DNA of 64,000 bases from an uncultured Alphaproteobacteria bacterium (lineage in GTDB: Bacteria; Pseudomonadota; Alphaproteobacteria; RF32; CAG-239): positions 47,224 through 111,223 of the forward strand of contig CAKQKH010000002.1 of NCBI GenBank assembly GCA_934248075.1, written 5' to 3'. The notes under the pieces were generated by a model. It did no database searches and was not told the origin of the DNA. It saw only the letters and a program-made list of their open reading frames with translations. Position 1 is the stretch's first letter. Each line of letters starts with the position of its first letter. A program made the translations under genes and the position numbers. Below, piece after piece: positions 22,852 through 53,180 of this stretch.

Positions 22852-23138
22852 GAAGAATGCACACTCTAACTTCTCCCCTTGATTTCAAGGGGAAGACAGA
22901 GAGGGGTTTAAAAATAGCTGTCACCGCTCCGAGGGGCGAACATTCTCGCCCGAGGTCAAGCGGTCTTCCGTGCTGATAATACAAACTAACAGCATGGAAG
23001 ATGCCTGGACTTTGCGGAAGAATACACACTCTAACTTCTCCCCTTGATTTCAAGGGAAGACAGAGAGGGGTTAAAAATAGCTGTCACCGCTCCGAGGGGC
23101 GAGCATTCTCGCCCGAGGTCAAGCGGTCTTCCGTGCTG
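22852..23138. repeat. Two direct copies of an about-120-bp palindromic element (family A), each followed by a short hairpin element (family B)
   Basis: Copy 1 at 22852-22975 and copy 2 at 23018-23138 are near-identical. Each carries internal inverted repeats (ccccttgatttcaagggg and gggcgaacattctcgccc). The B hairpin gatgcctggactttgcggaagaat recurs at 22997 and 23162. Confidence 0.85.
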
Positions 23139-23225
23139 TCAATCGATATTATCAGTTCGGTAGATGCCTGGACTTTGCGGAAGAATGCTTCCGCAAAGAG
23201 GCATGACAGAGTCTTTTTTATTGTC

Positions 23226-23338: not shown

Positions 23339-24088
23339 TTAGAAGGACAGGGTTTTGGCCAATTGTGAGGTATAAAAATTTCGCAGACGGTGAACATAGC
23401 CAGTATAGTTAACAAGTTTATATGCAAGCCAATCTTCGACACTCCCATGAAAAACCGCTACAACAAAGTTATAATAGTCTTGCATTTTTTGCAAATCATC
23501 AACTTTATATTTGCCATTAGGACGTTCAAATTGACCCGTCATCATATATTTGATTTTTTCAACAATATCCTGCGCCCGGGCAATTACTTTTTGGGCATCT
23601 ATCTGGCTCATATCTTTATGCTGTGGATAAATCAGCCACTTATCATACAAAACTGAATATTGCGCCAAATCTGGCACTTTTAATACAATTTTGATTTCCA
23701 CCTGACGCCCAGCAATACGATACTTACGCTGATGATCCAAAAAAGCATTACGAACCTTACCTATAAACTGAAATATTTGCTTATTACTTTTAAAAACGCC
23801 GTTATTTTCAACTATAGAAACAACTATTTCTAGATCCAAATCTGAAAACTCCTGATATTCATAAGTAGTGGAAGAACCAAACAAAACAATATCATCAACC
23901 TGCAACCACGGAAAATCCTTGAGACAACCGTCAATTACGACCTGCGCACGCATCAAAAGTTTTTGCCGAATCTCCGGCAGCATTTGGTGGTTAGCATCAA
24001 ACACACGGCTGTCAAGTTCCTGATGCGAGGTCATCAGCCACTTGATATTTTCTTCCATGGTCTGCTGGCGAGGATTGACGTTTAGCAT
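23339..24088 (-). CDS. Pol-beta-superfamily nucleotidyltransferase (KNTase/ANT/Lnu-like architecture)
   Basis: Canonical motif LFGSSTTYEYQEFSDLDLEIVV (hG[GS]...DxDxE) followed by a helical C-terminal region. Its ATG overlaps the upstream stop as ATGCTAA. Confidence 0.7.
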   Translation of the reverse strand: MLNVNPRQQTMEENIKWLMTSHQELDSRVFDANHQMLPEIRQKLLMRAQVVIDGCLKDFPWLQVDDIVLFGSSTTYEYQEFSDLDLEIVVSIVENNGVFKSNKQIFQFIGKVRNAFLDHQRKYRIAGRQVEIKIVLKVPDLAQYSVLYDKWLIYPQHKDMSQIDAQKVIARAQDIVEKIKYMMTGQFERPNGKYKVDDLQKMQDYYNFVVAVFHGSVEDWLAYKLVNYTGYVHRLRNFYTSQLAKTLSF

Positions 24089-24849
24089 TGCTCTAACTCA
24101 TTAATATTATAGTTATAAGATTCGATCAGGAATTTTTTGAAATATCTTTCACCGCCAAGCTCACAAAAAGTACGATAAAGCAAATAATCAAAATTATATT
24201 CATGCTCGTCGCTGTCCAACCAATATTTGCGGGCTTCCGAACGGAGATATTTAAGATAAGCTTCCAGCTGGTGGCAGCCTTCTATGGTAAATTCACCGTT
24301 AGGATGACGGGAATGAGATTCAACATTTTCACGGATAATCTGCTGATAACGCGGAAAAACCATGCAAAACTCCGGCATAGTGAAAGCAAACTGACGTTTG
24401 ACAGGCGGATTCAGCCAACGCTGGTGAATAATTGAAAAACAAGGAATTCCTTGAGGAACGTCAGCCAAAAAATGGCAATGAACCGGACGATTGATAAAAG
24501 TGTAAGGAATTTCGGTCGCTTCCAGAATATCATTAATCTCGGAAAGGTTGGCCTGCAACGGCTCAGGTAAATCATTATAGATCAGACCAACATATACAGG
24601 ACTAAAACGATTATAAACATAACCAGCCAGATCACCATACAACACCACGTCTGAGGCCTTTTGCCAATTTACCAAAGGGCGGTTTTCACCCCACCAAAAG
24701 TTGGCAATATTTATTATCCCAGATTTGAAAGTATCATACAATGTATCCGGTGATGAAAACACCACCGGACACAAGGTGTCATTAATGCGAACATGCTCGC
24801 CGATATCTATTGATTCAAACTTTATTGGCTGCATTAGCTTTAGTAACAC
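24082..24849 (-). CDS. Nucleotidyltransferase-like paralogue with degenerate catalytic motif
   Basis: Segment SDVVLYGDLAGYVYNRFSPVYVGLIY aligns to the NTase motif of the downstream gene, but GS has become GD and DLDLE has become PVYVG. Alternative ATG start at 24834. Confidence 0.55.
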   Translation of the reverse strand: MLLKLMQPIKFESIDIGEHVRINDTLCPVVFSSPDTLYDTFKSGIINIANFWWGENRPLVNWQKASDVVLYGDLAGYVYNRFSPVYVGLIYNDLPEPLQANLSEINDILEATEIPYTFINRPVHCHFLADVPQGIPCFSIIHQRWLNPPVKRQFAFTMPEFCMVFPRYQQIIRENVESHSRHPNGEFTIEGCHQLEAYLKYLRSEARKYWLDSDEHEYNFDYLLYRTFCELGGERYFKKFLIESYNYNINELEQC

Positions 24850-26084
24850 TTACCATTATAACACGTTTGGTTGCCTGTGCATGTAACGCTCTCACAAGGG
24901 TCGCCACCGGTTGAACCACCTGATGAGCTACCTCCTGATGAACCACCTGATGAACTACCGCTTATCTTAGTGGGCGTTATTGAAAATGATGCTGACATGC
25001 AACTATCGTCAGCTGTACAGGTTTTAACTAGGTCATCAGCATAGGCCTGACAAACGGTGGATAATTCACTAGATGTATAATTTGTAACATCCGTTGGACC
25101 ACAGGGTGCTACATAGTCATCGTAGCAGGTATTGTCAGGAAACCAATAGCCATCTGATTGTGAATAGACAGTACTGGTATACTGGGAACGACATTGATCA
25201 CGAATGGTTTTTGACCGGCAGTCTTTATAACAGGTTACACCACTAACAGTGATTTTTGCGCAATTATAATATCCCGTGTCTGAACTCAGGTATCCGGCAT
25301 CGGCGCAAACATCTTTGGCTTTGCCGGCATAAATAAAGATATTGGCCGAATAGTTCTGAGGAGTAACCGTGGTTGATTTGCCATAGATAGAATTTGATTT
25401 ACTAGCATCGAAATTAATATACACAGAATTGGCGCCTTTTGTGTGTCCTTTACCATAATTATCGCCTTTGGGTGATATACTGAAAGCCCCAGAAATATCT
25501 CCACTGTAACTATACTCCGGTCCTTGCAAACCTACTTTACCAGTAATATTGGGCAAGCCGGCGGCTTGCGCGCTACGAAACGCTGATTGAATTGTAGTCA
25601 CACTTGTTGTCTCTATTGCAGCACCTTTTAAGAAGTATCCCGAATATGAAGGAACGGTGTTTTTTCCTAATAACTTATATAAATCGGAATAAAGAGTTGT
25701 ATCAAATGATTGACCATTACACAATAACCAGCCATCATGATTTTTCGCTTTCCATGAATACTTCAGATCACCAACAGCATGCTGAGGGGCAAGACACATG
25801 CCAAATGTCGGCTCAAAGGGACACGGAATAAATGTATCTGAGCACCTAGTCTTTTGTGTGCTGTAACCCATAGACATACATTTCAAAACACCATCCTGGC
25901 AGTTATATTTGGTATCATCAAAGGGGCAGCGGGTGAATATTTTTCCCTCACATTGAGACGCGGTTTTGGTGTATCCCAAAGTGGCACAGTCAGGGGCAGC
26001 AGTGCATTCCTGTTCCTGAGCTTGGCTGGGCAGGGCGTATATCAATGCCGGAACGGCGGCAGAGGCTAATAACATATTTTTCAT
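24840..26084 (-). CDS. Secreted cysteine-rich protein with a phage tail-collar (MdpB-like) domain
   Basis: Signal peptide MKNMLLASAAVPALIYALPSQA. Central region GWLLCNGQSFDTTLYSDLYKLLG...VTPQNYSANIFIYAG matches the tail-collar pattern W.LCdG...Y..Lf..iG. C-terminal GSSSGGSSGG linker followed by a Cys knot. SD aaggggaaaag. Confidence 0.65.
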   Translation of the reverse strand: MKNMLLASAAVPALIYALPSQAQEQECTAAPDCATLGYTKTASQCEGKIFTRCPFDDTKYNCQDGVLKCMSMGYSTQKTRCSDTFIPCPFEPTFGMCLAPQHAVGDLKYSWKAKNHDGWLLCNGQSFDTTLYSDLYKLLGKNTVPSYSGYFLKGAAIETTSVTTIQSAFRSAQAAGLPNITGKVGLQGPEYSYSGDISGAFSISPKGDNYGKGHTKGANSVYINFDASKSNSIYGKSTTVTPQNYSANIFIYAGKAKDVCADAGYLSSDTGYYNCAKITVSGVTCYKDCRSKTIRDQCRSQYTSTVYSQSDGYWFPDNTCYDDYVAPCGPTDVTNYTSSELSTVCQAYADDLVKTCTADDSCMSASFSITPTKISGSSSGGSSGGSSSGGSTGGDPCESVTCTGNQTCYNGKCY

Positions 26085-26119: not shown

Positions 26120-26956
26120 CTACTTGACAGACCAAGTACAGAGTTGTTTGTTTTGGCAGATAAATTTGGTTTTATGATAATAACCGATATTACATTTGAC
26201 AAAGCGGTAATGAACCGTGGTATCACCACAGCCTTTGACGCAGGTTTCATATTGAGAGTTGGCCGGAGCGGAGTTTAAATCGTACTCCGAGCAATCTTTA
26301 GGCGTACAGGTTTTACCCTGTTCGCACTTGGAAGGGCAGTCGGCATAATATTTCTCACAACCATACTCAGTTGCGTTATCAGTCAGGGCATCACACGCCT
26401 CAACGCACTCGTTGCATTTTGCCGCGCAATTTGGACAAGGCGTTTTACAGCCATATGTGCAGGTTAAGTCATTGCAATTTTGGCTCAGGCAGGCGTCGGT
26501 AATCGGGGTCTCGCACTTGGCGGGGCAGTCATCCCAATATTTTTGACAACCATAATCAACAGATAGATTATCAGTGCGATTGCGACAATTATCAGTATAG
26601 GGAATCTCACATTTGGTTGAGCAGTCATCCCAGGTCTTTTGACAACCATAATCGGAATCGTGTTTGACGTCTGTACGCAAAGCGCAGGGTTCGACACAAC
26701 CACTGACACACCAGCCGACACCGGAGAAAAAATGTTTTTTAGAGCAGACCTGACCAGAGGCTGCCGAGGCGGAAAACCATCCGGAAGGACACTTGATGTC
26801 AGAATCAGAATCACGGCCGCCGGCGTTGCGATCCATGTTTTTGCCCAAGAAATCAGGCAACCAATAAATTTTGGCTGACACAGTGCCGACGACAAGCATA
26901 CAGCCCAACACCGTTAATATGCAGATATACTTCCGCATCGCGATGACTCCCATCAA
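26120..26956 (-). CDS. Secreted cysteine-rich repeat protein
   Basis: Signal peptide MRKYICILTVLGCMLVVGTVSA. The probable start is the ATG at 26937 or 26953, not the TTG at 26956. Three repeats of [DE]YGC[QE]K[TY][WY]xDC[SP]xKCE. More than 40 Cys residues. Confidence 0.6.
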   Translation of the reverse strand: MMGVIAMRKYICILTVLGCMLVVGTVSAKIYWLPDFLGKNMDRNAGGRDSDSDIKCPSGWFSASAASGQVCSKKHFFSGVGWCVSGCVEPCALRTDVKHDSDYGCQKTWDDCSTKCEIPYTDNCRNRTDNLSVDYGCQKYWDDCPAKCETPITDACLSQNCNDLTCTYGCKTPCPNCAAKCNECVEACDALTDNATEYGCEKYYADCPSKCEQGKTCTPKDCSEYDLNSAPANSQYETCVKGCGDTTVHYRFVKCNIGYYHKTKFICQNKQLCTWSVK

Positions 26957-26965
26957 AACTTGTAA

Positions 26966-27001
26966 CCTATTTTAGAATATCAGGCTACGCGCATGTTGTC
27001 A
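26966..27001 (-). promoter_or_regulatory. Candidate sigma-70 promoter of the Cys-rich/NTase operon
   Basis: On the minus strand: TTGACA, a 17-nt spacer, then TATTCT, about 10-30 nt upstream of the first gene. Confidence 0.35.
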
Positions 27002-27041
27002 ACGCGGAAATGATTACATTTATGTTACATAAAAACTAGCG

Positions 27042-38377: not shown

Positions 38378-38782
38378 TTGACAAGGTGCCTATAAGCCGG
38401 GTTCTGTATCCTGCAAAGCAGGACGATAGCCATTCATCTAGGCTGCTTATTACTAAGTAGCTCAACGCGACCTACCTCTGGAGCGGAAGGAGAACATTCC
38501 GTTTAACACAGTTTATTCAGCCCAAAAGCCAAATACTTGCGCCCTCCTAACTTGGTCTTGCATCAAACAGGGTTTACCCTGCCAAAACCGTTGCCGGTTT
38601 TGCGGTGGGCTCTTACCCCGCCTTTTCACCCTTACCGAAAACGTATTTCGGCGGTATATTCTCTGTGGCACTTTCCCTTGGATTACTCCAGCCGGACGTT
38701 ATCCGGTGTTTTGTTCCCCTGAAGCCCGGACTTTCCTCACCGCGGGCAACGCCACGGCGCGGCTATCCGGCCACCTTGTCGT
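38378..38782 (-). ncRNA. rnpB: RNase P RNA (bacterial type A)
   Basis: The minus strand carries GAGGAAAGTCCGGGCT (P4 5' strand), AGGGTGAAAAGGCGGGGTAAGAGCCCACC and ACAGAACCCGGCTTAT (P4 3' strand). Termini pair as P1: GACAAGGTGG / CACCTTGTC. Confidence 0.88.
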
Positions 38783-42583: not shown

Positions 42584-42607
42584 GTGCCGGGCCGGCACGG
42601 GCATTCG

Positions 42608-42945
42608 CAAGAATATACTCGCCACTCACTGTGTTCGAGGCTCGGAATTATGCCTGATTTGCACCCCTGCTCCGTCATTGCGAGGTGAACATTAGTGAAC
42701 CGAAGCAATCCATATTGTTTCTTGATAAAAATGGATTGCTTCTCGCGGCTAATCGCCGTTCGCGCAATGACCCGCGACGACGGCTCCGCATTGTCATTCC
42801 GGCGGACGCCGGAATCCAGTGAAAAAACATGTCATGCCTCGATTGCGGAACGCAATCGTCAGGGCATCTTCCGTACTGACATTTAAAAAGCTCGGAAGAC
42901 CGCTTGACCTCGGGCGAGAATACTCGCCTCTCGGAGCGGTGACAG
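42608..42945. repeat. Mosaic cluster of palindromic repeat elements (families D, C, IPAxAGMT-type and A inverted)
   Basis: D at 42608-42666 matches 45506-45555. C at 42694-42776. cattccggcggacgccggaatccag is an IPAFAGMT-type element. 42890-42945 is the reverse complement of the 3' half of family A. Confidence 0.8.
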
Positions 42946-43333
42946 TCTTTATTCTTCCTCACCCCCATCTAAATCGTCTAACTTGGTAGGTTCGCCTATA
43001 ATGGCTCACCAACCGCGTGTCGGGCACTTGTTTACTAGTTTCGCTGTGTTTGCTTACACGCTGCGCTAGCTCAACAAGTAAACTTACGTCGCTTGCGGCA
43101 AAAACAGTCTGTACTTTGACTGTTTTTATCCTCGCGCCCCGTCAAGGGGGAAGACTTATAAGGCAATATCTTTTAACAGATACTATAATAACCAGCACTA
43201 TCTCCAGCGAGGGCGGATAGTGGAATTTATAGAGTAATTTCTAGGTGCGGAAAAGCGGAGCGTACACGACCAGTACGTGAGCATTTTACGTCACCGTAAA
43301 ATTGCTCTAGAAAACCGCTAGACGCCCTCGCCT

Positions 43334-45241
43334 CTAAAACAGCTTTAGCACAGCCTGCGCCGCTTGCGATGCCAGCGACAGGGAGTTGATAGCCAACTGT
43401 TGTCTGGTTTGCAAAGAAAGCATATTGGCGGATTCTTCGTTCATATCGGCAAGGGTTAGCTTATCCGCGCCCTCGGTCAGAATATTTATCAAATTCTCGG
43501 TGAATTCCTGCCGATTGGTAATGATTGAATAATTATTCCCCAACTCCGCCGTAAAAGCTCTAATACTTTTCAAGGCGCCGGCGATTTCTTTTAGGCTCTG
43601 GGCGATATCGCCTTGATTCTGCCAATCAATCGTATTCAGCCCCAGCGCGCCGGCTGACATATCTTTACCATTAACATTCAAATCGGCGTCGCCTTTTTCA
43701 TTAAACCGCACGTTCAGTTTTTCATTTTTGAGTAGGTTTACTCCCTTGTATGACGAATCCTTAACCAGCGTATCATATTGATTTAAGATTCCGGTATAAG
43801 CCTTACCTTGTTCCGCTGTACTATTATTATAATTATATTCAGTTTGGCGTTCTGAGTTTTGCTTAGCCAAAATATCTGCTATGGCAACATCGGCCGTTTT
43901 AGTCTCTGCGGTTTTAGTAAAATTTGCCCAAAATTCAGCTTTGGAGCCAACAGTTTCATTTGAAATTGATTGGCTCTCAAAGACTTCTCCCTTATAGCTT
44001 AACTTTGCCCCTTTCACTGTGCTTAACAATATATTTGCCTGTTCAAAATCTATTTCTGAAAATAAATTCAACTCCACATCTGCGGAATTAATAGTTAAAT
44101 TCAATATGCGATCTTGCGTATTTGAACTAGAAGTCGCGCCAAAAATATTTAACTTAGCGCGATCATCAAGACTCACTTCGCGACTCAGAGACAAAGTAGC
44201 ATATCGAGATCCTTGCAAATTGGCCACACTGTCATCATGCATATAAAGATATGAACTTTCTAATGCATTTCCCCCACCATAAGCATTGATTCGTGACGAT
44301 CCAAATGTGTTTATGGTTGTACCTGCAAACACCCGCCCTTGTTTATCATTTATCTCCATATTAAGCACCGCGCCGTCTTCTAGGGTAATCTTGCTATTCA
44401 CAATTGTCTGTACATAATATTCGTCTTTTGTCGGGGAATAAAAATTATTAATTCCTCTCATCAAATAATTACCAGAACCAATACCATTAATATGATGCTC
44501 GACATCAGAACATAAGGCCGACTTTGAATTATCCAAAACCATATCCATATTCTGCCACACAATATCTCCTGAAGCACCATACGCAGTAATGACTTCGTTT
44601 TTCGGCCCATTACTGGCAAAAGCATGAATGGACAGATCAGAAAACATATGATTTTCACCCAAAACAGAAATAGCGTTTTTTTCATTAAGTTCGGTAAAGT
44701 CTATACTGATTTGTGAGAATTTATCGGTATCCGGTTCGGACACACCATAATAGCCGACCCCGACCAGATTTTGTCCGGCTTGCAAAATGATTGTGCTTTC
44801 AGCGGTGATGTTACCATAGATGACGATGTTGCCGGCTTTGCCACTGTCTAATGCGGCTTTCAGCTCGCTCCAATTACTGACCACTGCCGAAACATTGTCC
44901 TGACTTTCAAACCATTCTTTACTGGGGATTTTGGCGGTTTCTAAAGCGGAAGTAGCCACTGCCGCGGCCTGCTCAAGGAATGTCGCTCCGGTTTCTAAGG
45001 CTGTGGTGGCGGTTTTGATAGTGCTGACCGCTTGTCCCATGGAGTCAAGAAGCGCGTCTAAATCATTAGCGCGATTGTTTAAGGAACGCGCGGTGTAATA
45101 AGAACTGGGGTTATCAATAGCGGAGTTGACCTTGTTGCCGGTGGCGAGTTTATTTTGGGTAGCGCCAACCGTCCTGCTGATATTCTGCAGGCTCAACAAA
45201 TTGCTCCGCATACTCGCGGTTAGGCTGATGTTGCCGCTCAA
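43334..45241 (-). CDS. fliC: Flagellin (635 aa)
   Basis: N-terminal flagellin domain (LTASMRSNLLSLQN...TGNKVNSAIDNPSSYYTARSL) and C-terminal flagellin domain (LSLQTRQQLAINSLSLASQAAQAVLKLF). TTG start with SD ggag. FlgL cannot be fully excluded. Confidence 0.75.
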   Translation of the reverse strand: MSGNISLTASMRSNLLSLQNISRTVGATQNKLATGNKVNSAIDNPSSYYTARSLNNRANDLDALLDSMGQAVSTIKTATTALETGATFLEQAAAVATSALETAKIPSKEWFESQDNVSAVVSNWSELKAALDSGKAGNIVIYGNITAESTIILQAGQNLVGVGYYGVSEPDTDKFSQISIDFTELNEKNAISVLGENHMFSDLSIHAFASNGPKNEVITAYGASGDIVWQNMDMVLDNSKSALCSDVEHHINGIGSGNYLMRGINNFYSPTKDEYYVQTIVNSKITLEDGAVLNMEINDKQGRVFAGTTINTFGSSRINAYGGGNALESSYLYMHDDSVANLQGSRYATLSLSREVSLDDRAKLNIFGATSSSNTQDRILNLTINSADVELNLFSEIDFEQANILLSTVKGAKLSYKGEVFESQSISNETVGSKAEFWANFTKTAETKTADVAIADILAKQNSERQTEYNYNNSTAEQGKAYTGILNQYDTLVKDSSYKGVNLLKNEKLNVRFNEKGDADLNVNGKDMSAGALGLNTIDWQNQGDIAQSLKEIAGALKSIRAFTAELGNNYSIITNRQEFTENLINILTEGADKLTLADMNEESANMLSLQTRQQLAINSLSLASQAAQAVLKLF

Positions 45242-45396: not shown

Positions 45397-45592
45397 TGTC
45401 ACTCTGAGCAAAGCGAAGAGTCCATATTGTTTCTTGATAAAAATGGATTGCTTCTCACGGCTAAACGCCGTTCGCGCAATGACCCGCGCGGCGGGCGGCG
45501 CATAACAAGAATTTACTCGCCACTCACTTTGTTCGAGGCTCGGGATATTGCACCTTTAGGAATCTCCCCTTGATTTCAAGGGGAGGAATTAG
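45397..45592. repeat. Mosaic repeat cluster (family C variant, family D, family A fragment)
   Basis: C-like at 45397-45490. D at 45506-45555. ctccccttgatttcaaggggagg at 45567-45589. Confidence 0.8.
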
Positions 45593-52984: not shown

Positions 52985-53180
52985 GTATAGAAACTGCGTA
53001 GTGCGTATTTCCGCAGATCTTCCGAGCCAACATATTTTTATAGGGAGCTGTTCCTGAATAAATCGTGGTTTATTTATACGGCACCCACCTGATCGCAAGC
53101 GGTTCGATAAGAATGTATCCATACGGCTAAATGGTTTCACTTTTATAAACCTCGTTGACTTCAACGAGGTTTTCTTTTAT
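52985..53180 (+). ncRNA. ssrS: Candidate 6S RNA (ssrS)
   Basis: A 240-nt non-coding gap immediately downstream of zapA, which is the conserved position of ssrS in proteobacteria. It ends in a strong terminator. The 5' and 3' segments show partial complementarity. Ends were not determined. Confidence 0.3.
53146..53178 (+). terminator. Rho-independent terminator
   Basis: Stem ctcgttga / tcaacgag followed by ttttctttt. Confidence 0.8.

Follow-up and report, generated by a model that had tools for sequence, protein, structure and literature searches.

What would a bacterium do with the tip of a phage tail fibre that bears a secretion leader and is encoded among housekeeping genes? The question is raised by one gene in a 64,000-nucleotide stretch from an uncultured alphaproteobacterium of lineage RF32 (contig CAKQKH010000002.1 of assembly GCA_934248075.1, positions 47,224 to 111,223), which we call the window; positions below are window positions. 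An initial annotation, made from the sequence alone, had described an isolated phage tail-collar domain inside an exported, cysteine-rich protein and had taken it for a receptor-binding fold domesticated as an adhesin or effector. We refer to the gene as the collar gene and to its product as the collar protein (Table 1); an identical protein is also present on public contigs. The part of that description which stood is a phage fold in a disulfide-rich protein with predicted Sec export, encoded outside a prophage. As to function, a variable surface or secreted binding protein or adhesin, made from a domesticated tail-fibre tip, is our best guess, and we give it about an even chance of being right.

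The tail-collar assignment was borne out by a hidden Markov model search, in which the collar protein matched Pfam Collar (PF07484) with E=4.4e-7 and 30.2 bits (curated cut-off: 24). This match is partial (residues 117-141; profile positions 13-37 of 57). The 'tail collar fiber protein' family phrog_523 matched over residues 112-266 (profile positions 496-651 of 673; E=1.7e-14), and phrog_12846 matched with E=1.2e-12. A profile built from the family recognized the short tail fibre of Pectobacterium phage phiTE (9cuy, chain residues 170-288; E=5.9e-15) and, weakly, T4 gp12. In the paper citing 9cuy, only residues 3-92 of the short tail fibre were modelled into the map and the remainder was an AlphaFold prediction (PMC11972413), so the matched region may lack experimental resolution. 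With tblastn against phage genomes, rV5-like tail fibres were found at 30-33% identity over residues 117-267.

The fold pointed the same way. An AlphaFold2 (AF2) monomer model of the whole chain reached a pLDDT (predicted local distance difference test) of 76 and gave 54 matches at E<=1e-3 among the predicted viral structures of BFVD, the best being a tail fibre (4.5e-9). These matches were clearer than those in the PDB, where the top folds were still phage fibres (Pa223 tail fibre, T4 gp37 tip, gp12 and the Bizionia C24 protein). With homology to phage tail-fibre tips over residues ~104-266, the entire tip of ~150 residues is phage-derived, and not only the 25-residue motif. The collar protein shares with phage tail fibres (T4 gp12, phiTE 9cuy and the rV5-like fibres) the motifs GWLLCNG, LPNITG and FDASKSNSIYG...VxPxN, a predicted fold that matches viral tail-fibre models, and a variable region between conserved motifs, as in phage host-range determinants. 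Unlike these fibres, it has a Sec leader where the baseplate-attachment and shaft region would be, carries additional Cys-rich domains, and belongs to a multi-copy cellular family encoded on the chromosome among housekeeping genes.

The N-terminus of the collar protein, MKNMLLASAAVPALIYALPSQA followed by QEQEC, combines a basic n-region with a hydrophobic core and with small residues at positions -3 and -1. It fits a Sec type-I leader, as the initial annotation had it, and export is predicted. The leader was 100% conserved across 12 orthologues, and the pattern A-x-A followed by Q-x-C at its end is kept family-wide. A lipobox ([LVI][ASTVI][GAS]C) is absent from the leader end, where E-Q-E precedes the first Cys, and a lipoprotein reading was rejected on this ground.

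The collar protein contains 24 Cys in all, not the ~40 counted initially. Nor is their spacing that of epidermal growth factor (EGF)-like domains: no EGF family matched the collar protein in Pfam at E<=1, and the N-terminal cysteines form two copies of a different four-Cys module (C-x11-C-x6/7-C-x8-C) that has no CxC. The EGF-like reading was therefore rejected. The Gly/Ser linker and the terminal cysteines were both found where the initial annotation had placed them, the latter as a four-Cys hairpin that also occurs in the distant family member P0026. Between the collar domain and the linker lies a C-terminal domain whose 10 Cys were all invariant in 25 sequences. Its AF2 model had a pLDDT of 80 (most 10-residue blocks: 83-91) and matched no PDB fold (best E=0.95), and no toxin domain was recognized in it, Pfam, NCBIfam and PADLOC giving no match.

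The surrounding 20 kb in each direction hold housekeeping genes, and phage structural or lysis genes were not found there, in agreement with the initial annotation. The products include ClpB, enolase, ValRS, TolC, glycogen phosphorylase, a major facilitator superfamily (MFS) transporter, ArgRS, GAPDH, PGK, GluRS, RecN, BamD, LpxC, RNase P RNA, MraW, FtsI and flagellin. The neighbourhood is syntenic in related metagenomic contigs. In contrast, the leaderless relative P0100 is encoded in a true prophage of an alphaproteobacterial metagenome-assembled genome (MAG; locus L055), with a terminase, Cpn10, two Collar genes and a lysozyme. A prophage remnant was rejected on context and architecture. 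In the 64-kb window, no second copy of the collar gene was found by tblastn, which means that no other copy of its variable loop is present there, and no other open reading frame (ORF) bears the Cys module. The window also holds no template repeat of a diversity-generating retroelement, although no search was aimed at reverse transcriptase.

The domain is not isolated, as had been thought, but belongs to a large and often multi-copy lineage-specific superfamily. A homologue search with the collar protein gave 202 matches. At least 83 clusters from gut alphaproteobacterial MAGs (P0001-P0082 and P0110) have the leader, one or two Cys modules and the collar domain starting at residue ~75-120; they contain 7-27 Cys and either end 3-4 residues past FIYAG or add 105-167 residues. 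The matches from P0083 onward (P0110 apart) are phage-type, lack both the leader and the Cys modules and have at most 6 Cys, in contrast to the 24 of the collar protein. The retention of the leader in P0001-P0082 and its absence from the phage-type relatives support the predicted export.

A scan of species-representative genomes yielded 43 collar loci. Nearly all of them belong to MAGs with the label Alphaproteobacteria from the gut of roe deer, water buffalo or human, and one MAG has at least 10 loci and another at least 8. Many copies are cut at contig ends, as is expected for a repeated family. The initial annotation had looked to amoeba-associated hosts; all named relatives instead come from animal or human gut MAGs labelled Alphaproteobacteria. 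The strain-level relative GCA_977943005.1 carries two cassettes, each a Cys-rich gene with a collar gene, on separate contigs. Some other MAGs have tandem pairs or up to 4 adjacent ORFs of the collar family, some of them divergent (L008 6193-9050; L043, L045 and L046).

Both module copies of the collar protein follow the pattern C-x2-LG[YF]-x5-7-C-x4-8-CP[FG]D-x5-6-C, and its N-terminal module region matched nothing in Pfam or NCBIfam. We defined a superfamily, which is ours and not curated, by a Sec-type leader followed within ~45 residues by at least one C-x2-LG[YF]-x5-7-C-x4-8-CP-x-D-x5-6-C module; the collar protein belongs to it with two modules. Searching with a profile of the module gave 868 clusters (50% identity) at E<=1e-3, 96 of them at E<=1e-10, with up to 7 profile-matched module stretches per protein. 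Given this number and the missing Pfam and NCBIfam matches in the collar protein, the module is a candidate new domain. Among the 144 best new representatives, 134 had a hydrophobic N-terminus, and in 130 the first module lay no more than 45 residues from the start. The number of modules per protein reaches six, and the collar motif was present in only 16. Pfam heads were Lcl_C (13 representatives), Collar (11), Gp10_C (2) and a BspA-type leucine-rich repeat (LRR; 1), and most were unmatched. Every named member of the module family came from an 'Alphaproteobacteria bacterium' MAG. This survey suggests that the collar protein is one branch of a lineage-specific superfamily with a common exported Cys stalk and interchangeable heads. 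Several of these heads are adhesin-like.

Within the collar domain, a loop of 37-50 residues with a central conserved SGAF anchor lies between the conserved motifs LPNITG and FDASKSNSIYG. In 65 family members we found 59 distinct loops, which fall into at least 36 types at 60% identity. Over 2080 pairs, mean identity was 62% in the framework and 27% in the loop, and the two were nearly uncorrelated (r=0.13). Fifty-one pairs combined a framework identity >=90% with a loop identity <=45% (for example P0037 and P0046, with 97% and 17%), and 10 pairs showed the reverse (framework <=65%, loop >=80%). The window protein and P0054 share 98% of the loop and 39% of the framework. P0001, which represents a 99%-identical strain, and P0054 are paralogues within GCA_977943005.1; their loops are 95% identical at the amino acid level and their frameworks 39%. 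At the DNA level, blastn aligned only a 173-bp segment of these two genes (92.5% identity), and the rest gave no match. The same segment of the window (25384-25556) is 93% identical to the paralogue on L054, again with no blastn match in the rest of the gene.

No differences were seen among the 12 orthologues in the leader or in the core of module 1 (100% conserved); the variable parts were the loop, module 2, residues 157-170 and portions of the C-terminal domain. Compared with the sister genome L002, protein identity was 53.8% for the collar protein, 87.8% for cys278 (encoded directly upstream), 94.5% and 89.5% for NT255 and NT249 (encoded downstream) and 94-99% for the housekeeping flanks. 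Non-synonymous (dN) and synonymous (dS) divergence by the Nei-Gojobori method was 0.39 and 1.29 for the collar gene (ratio 0.31), and 0.004-0.06 and 0.33-0.87 for the flanking genes (ratios 0.009-0.12). The raised dS of the collar gene points to old alleles moved by recombination plus fast protein change. Relative to the 99%-identical strain (P0001), the collar protein differs only by D196Y in the loop and by a 4-residue in-frame indel in the linker. The initial annotation mentioned neither the cassette loop nor the conserved operon partners, nor the extreme divergence at this locus.

We hypothesize that the bacterium exports a domesticated phage tail-fibre tip through Sec. The mature chain runs from two four-Cys modules through the ~150-residue collar domain and the 10-Cys alpha/beta domain to a Gly/Ser tether and the four-Cys hairpin. 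By analogy with its phage relatives it would form a trimer, with disulfides that keep it stable once it has left the cytoplasm and is exposed to the gut. Its 37-50-residue loop, flanked by LPNITG and FDASKSNSIYG, would bind a surface ligand that is polymorphic, and for which glycans of host mucus, host cells or bacterial envelopes are the most likely candidates. Specificity would reside in this loop as an exchangeable cassette: recombination anchored in the conserved motifs on either side would move loops among paralogues and strains, and give each lineage a changing repertoire of binding specificities.

The collar gene is probably co-transcribed with cys278 upstream and with NT255 and NT249 downstream; cys278 would be exported and the two nucleotidyltransferase (NT)-like proteins cytoplasmic. 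The collar gene starts 35 nt past the cys278 stop codon and is preceded by the Shine-Dalgarno-like sequence AAGGGG. NT255 overlaps the collar gene by 10 nt, or begins 5 nt after it if its ATG start is used, and NT249 overlaps NT255 by 7 nt. The predicted cys278 product has 33 Cys and three DYGCQK.WDDC..KCE.P.TD.C repeats. Its homologues, 29 clusters without a Pfam match, are encoded directly upstream of collar genes at L002, L004, L009, L052 and L054. When profiles of the C-terminal domain, the N-terminal modules and cys278 were compared with one another, the best pairwise E was 0.0088 at 4.6% probability; the likeness of the C-terminal domain to cys278 is marginal. GC content at third codon positions (GC3) was 0.36 for the collar gene, 0.36-0.39 for the collar and NT genes together, 0.50 for cys278 and 0.48-0.61 for the housekeeping flanks.

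NT249 matched Pfam NTP_transf_2 with 22 bits (cut-off: 21) and the phage family phrog_36119 with E=5.4e-10. It is a distant paralogue of NT255 (E about 4e-7), which has lost the catalytic motif; in the more distant genomes of L010 and L036, both paralogues retain GS...DxD. In the 99%-identical strain, NT249 is represented by two ORFs (L001 11985-12738), owing to a frameshift or an assembly error. For NT249 and NT255, a word-indexed homologue search found 4 proteins, tblastn against phages found only Synechococcus-phage and metagenomic nucleotidyltransferases at 23-26% identity, and a PDB profile search gave only marginal matches to minimal nucleotidyltransferases. Arrays of 2-4 NT paralogues adjoin collar genes in distant genomes at L004, L009, L010, L028 and L036, directly downstream except at L036, where a pair is found upstream in the opposite orientation. 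NT genes are missing from most collar loci and, where present, do not track the collar C-terminal type. No PADLOC defence family matched the collar protein or cys278, and NT249 gave only weak matches to PDC-S09 and PDC-M62B.

Several findings weigh against an exported, variable adhesin. The whole-chain model matched PDB folds only weakly in Foldseek (best E=8.5e-3). In a diderm, a Sec leader guarantees the periplasm only, and we recognized no surface-sorting or secretion motif in the collar protein. The tight linkage to cytoplasmic nucleotidyltransferase-like genes is unexplained by an adhesin. Finally, the elevated dS of 1.29 (dN/dS 0.31) means that part of the collar divergence reflects old recombined alleles and not demonstrated positive selection.

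These points leave room for other explanations, which we ranked by likelihood as a phage mask or decoy, a bacteriocin-like effector, a periplasmic structural role and a phage remnant. As a mask or decoy, the protein would bind lipopolysaccharide (LPS), capsule or flagellum of its own cell and thereby block adsorption or soak up the structures that phages recognize. The tail fibres from which the domain derives belong to phages infecting this very lineage, so it would be the cell's own phage receptor that is bound, and an arms race with phage receptor-binding proteins would drive the turnover of the loop. The nearest relatives without a leader are indeed tail fibres of true prophages, found in MAGs of Alphaproteobacteria; the locus shows extreme divergence, with mosaic loops; and the atypical GC3 of the collar gene relative to its flanks is consistent with a foreign origin. 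We nevertheless consider this explanation unlikely, given the lack of a PADLOC match to the collar protein or cys278 and the Lcl_C and LRR heads on the shared N-terminal module, which suit adhesion better. A polymorphic-toxin-like effector, with a tip that targets competitors, a toxic C-terminal domain and NT paralogues as immunity proteins, seems to us slightly less probable still. It would account for the polymorphic C-terminal extensions (absent, or about 105-167 amino acids of several types), for the fast evolution of the locus, and for the 2-4 divergent tandem NT paralogues that are translationally coupled directly downstream at four loci (L004/L005, L009, L010 and L028) or paired upstream on the opposite strand at L036. 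However, many members stop 3-4 residues past the collar and therefore have no payload, and the NT arrays accompany differing C-terminal types and even a short member (L036), with no NT genes at most loci. NT proteins that retain the catalytic GS...DxD motif look like enzymes, and the C-terminal domain matched no toxin family or solved fold.

The protein could also remain in the periplasm or on the periplasmic side of the outer membrane, where it would bind LPS precursors, peptidoglycan or the flagellar apparatus; its variation would then be a by-product of relaxed constraint. The Sec leader is the only recognizable signal, without a secretion or sorting signal, and one relative adjoins a flagellar rod gene (L007). 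Relaxed constraint, however, fits poorly with cassette-like loop exchange in a conserved framework and with a signal peptide and module 1 that are 100% conserved, and the heads that share the N-terminal module are adhesin-like; we find an envelope role improbable. What public records call a 'tail fiber protein' in relatives might, lastly, be just that: a fibre that serves a tailocin or gene transfer agent with its genes at another site, or what is left of a cryptic prophage. The phage kinship of the collar domain is real, and NT249 matches a phage family of unknown function (phrog_36119). Yet tail fibres assemble in the cytoplasm, and the collar protein has a signal peptide and 24 Cys and is without an N-terminal shaft or baseplate-attachment region. 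In addition, its housekeeping neighbourhood is syntenic across species and its ORF is intact in many genomes. A phage part is thus largely excluded and, in our judgement, very improbable.

The adhesin reading can be taken further, although only tentatively and with a good deal more doubt. Gut Alphaproteobacteria may have built a combinatorial recognition repertoire from captured phage tips, in which gene conversion moves a ~40-residue loop among dispersed complete copies and the Cys module serves as a common export or anchoring stalk. If true, antigenic or ligand variation would have a counterpart built on tail fibres, with which the cell could follow polymorphic glycans of its host or shield its own phage receptors. 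Neisseria pilE/pilS and Borrelia vlsE undergo antigenic variation by gene conversion. As in these systems, a conserved framework flanks hypervariable cassettes that are exchanged among genomic copies; in contrast to them, no silent promoterless cassette array is shown for the collar gene, and its copies look like complete genes.

Phage receptor-binding proteins are recycled in tailocins and a few pilus fusions. To our knowledge, no large cellular family has been described that combines a Sec leader, disulfide modules and a tip loop shuffled among paralogues; our literature search on MdpB, to which the initial annotation had likened the domain, and on tail fibres of gut RF32 found nothing useful. 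Collar domains outside phages are themselves already known, from a PilV fusion (PMC9881135) and from Candidatus Solibacter usitatus (PMC3174227). In the PilV-tail-collar fusion, a shufflon on the pilus tip undergoes programmed site-specific inversions (PMC9881135). It resembles the collar protein in that a collar domain was co-opted into a bacterial surface-recognition protein with a specificity region varied by recombination. Unlike that fusion, the collar protein has no pilin domain, there is no second gene copy in the 64-kb window, and its variation looks like homologous exchange between dispersed paralogues. The Solibacter paralogues, named 'phage tail collar domain protein', gave a signal of positive selection in a codon-based Z-test (PMC3174227) and, like the collar family, are chromosomal and multi-copy. 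By their description, and not by sequence comparison, they differ from the collar family in belonging to another phylum, and the paper reports no Sec leader, Cys-module architecture or loop cassettes. What is new here is the combination of Sec leader and Cys modules, together with a superfamily this large and a loop that behaves so cleanly as a cassette.

The Legionella collagen-like adhesin Lcl is an exported, trimeric, surface-exposed adhesin that binds glycosaminoglycans and has a carbohydrate-binding C-terminal head (PMC11162425). It is linked to the present family by the Lcl_C heads that sit on the Cys module type of the collar protein in 13 of the 144 sister proteins. The collar protein differs from Lcl in having neither a collagen-like repeat nor Lcl_C and in its phage-derived head; for the collar protein, trimer formation and glycan binding are putative. 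The current labels 'tail fiber protein' and 'hypothetical' mislabel the family and could inflate prophage calls in gut metagenomes. The family would offer a way to study how an uncultured but abundant lineage of the gut attaches to hosts, to its neighbours or to phages, and its conserved framework with a swappable loop could serve as a natural scaffold for engineered binders.

Table 1. Features of the collar gene, its product and the neighbouring operon genes (window positions)
Feature	Position	Strand	Basis or remark
Collar gene, 414 aa	24840..26084	(-)	Stop codon included; ORF list
Signal peptide, Sec type-I, residues 1-22	26019..26084	(-)	Sequence features; predicted cleavage between SQA and QE
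Cys module 1, residues 27-62, C-x5-C-x2-LGY-x6-C-x7-CPFD-x6-C	25899..26006	(-)	Family alignment; invariant C/P/LG/CP columns
Cys module 2, residues 69-97, second and more variable 4-Cys copy	25794..25880	(-)	
Tail-fibre-tip (collar) domain, residues 104-256, GDLKYS to FIYAGK	25317..25775	(-)	Pfam Collar, PHROG, 9cuy, BFVD
Hypervariable cassette loop, residues 183-222, LPNITG to FDASKSNSIYG	25419..25538	(-)	Loop versus framework identity
C-terminal 10-Cys alpha/beta domain, residues 257-372, clade-specific	24969..25316	(-)	AF2 model
Gly/Ser linker, residues 375-394, imperfect 12-15-bp tandem repeat	24903..24962	(-)	Tandem Repeats Finder (TRF) array 24912-24959
Terminal 4-Cys hairpin, residues 395-414, C-x4-C-x5-C-x4-C-Y	24843..24902	(-)	C397/C402/C408/C413
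cys278, upstream partner	26120..26956	(-)	ORF list; likely true start ATG at 26938
Promoter-like site TTGACA-17-TATTCT with TG extension, upstream of cys278	26974..27002	(-)	Consensus scan 10/12; pattern match only
NT255, nucleotidyltransferase-like paralogue without GS...DxD motif	24082..24849	(-)	
NT249, Pol-beta-type nucleotidyltransferase, intact GSS...DLDLE motif	23339..24088	(-)	

Some further features of the window were recorded. Downstream of the operon, an intergenic 163-bp unit containing the stem-loop CCCCTTGATTTCAAGGGG is present in two tandem copies (22852-23186; 91% identical). Related copies lie near 42595-43169 and 45483-45563 and also occur at L002, L052 and L054. Because intergenic regions elsewhere in the window, as well as related genomes, hold copies of ~90% identity, the unit looks like a repetitive extragenic palindrome (REP) or a miniature inverted-repeat transposable element (MITE).

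A second fast-evolving gene adjoins the operon. The gene, orf776 (20290-22620, plus strand; GC3 0.375), is 63% identical to its L002 orthologue, with flanks at ~96%, and has a dN/dS of 0.35 with normal dS. Its product has an acidic DNSDP-type low-complexity tract, is without a signal peptide and matched no Pfam, NCBIfam, PHROG or PADLOC family.

Among the RNA genes, class A RNase P RNA (38378-38778, minus strand; 288 bits) and 6S RNA (52988-53141, plus strand; 63.6 bits) were identified, and no tRNA genes were found in the 64 kb. A flagellin (635 amino acids; 43334-45241, minus strand) has a big central insert with a weak match to the pectate-lyase-like adhesive family PF20585 (E=4.8e-4, below cut-off). 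A 335-amino-acid protein (14978-15985, minus strand) combines a C-terminal DUF2497 with a proline/acidic repeat tract that matches Trypan_PARP well below cut-off.

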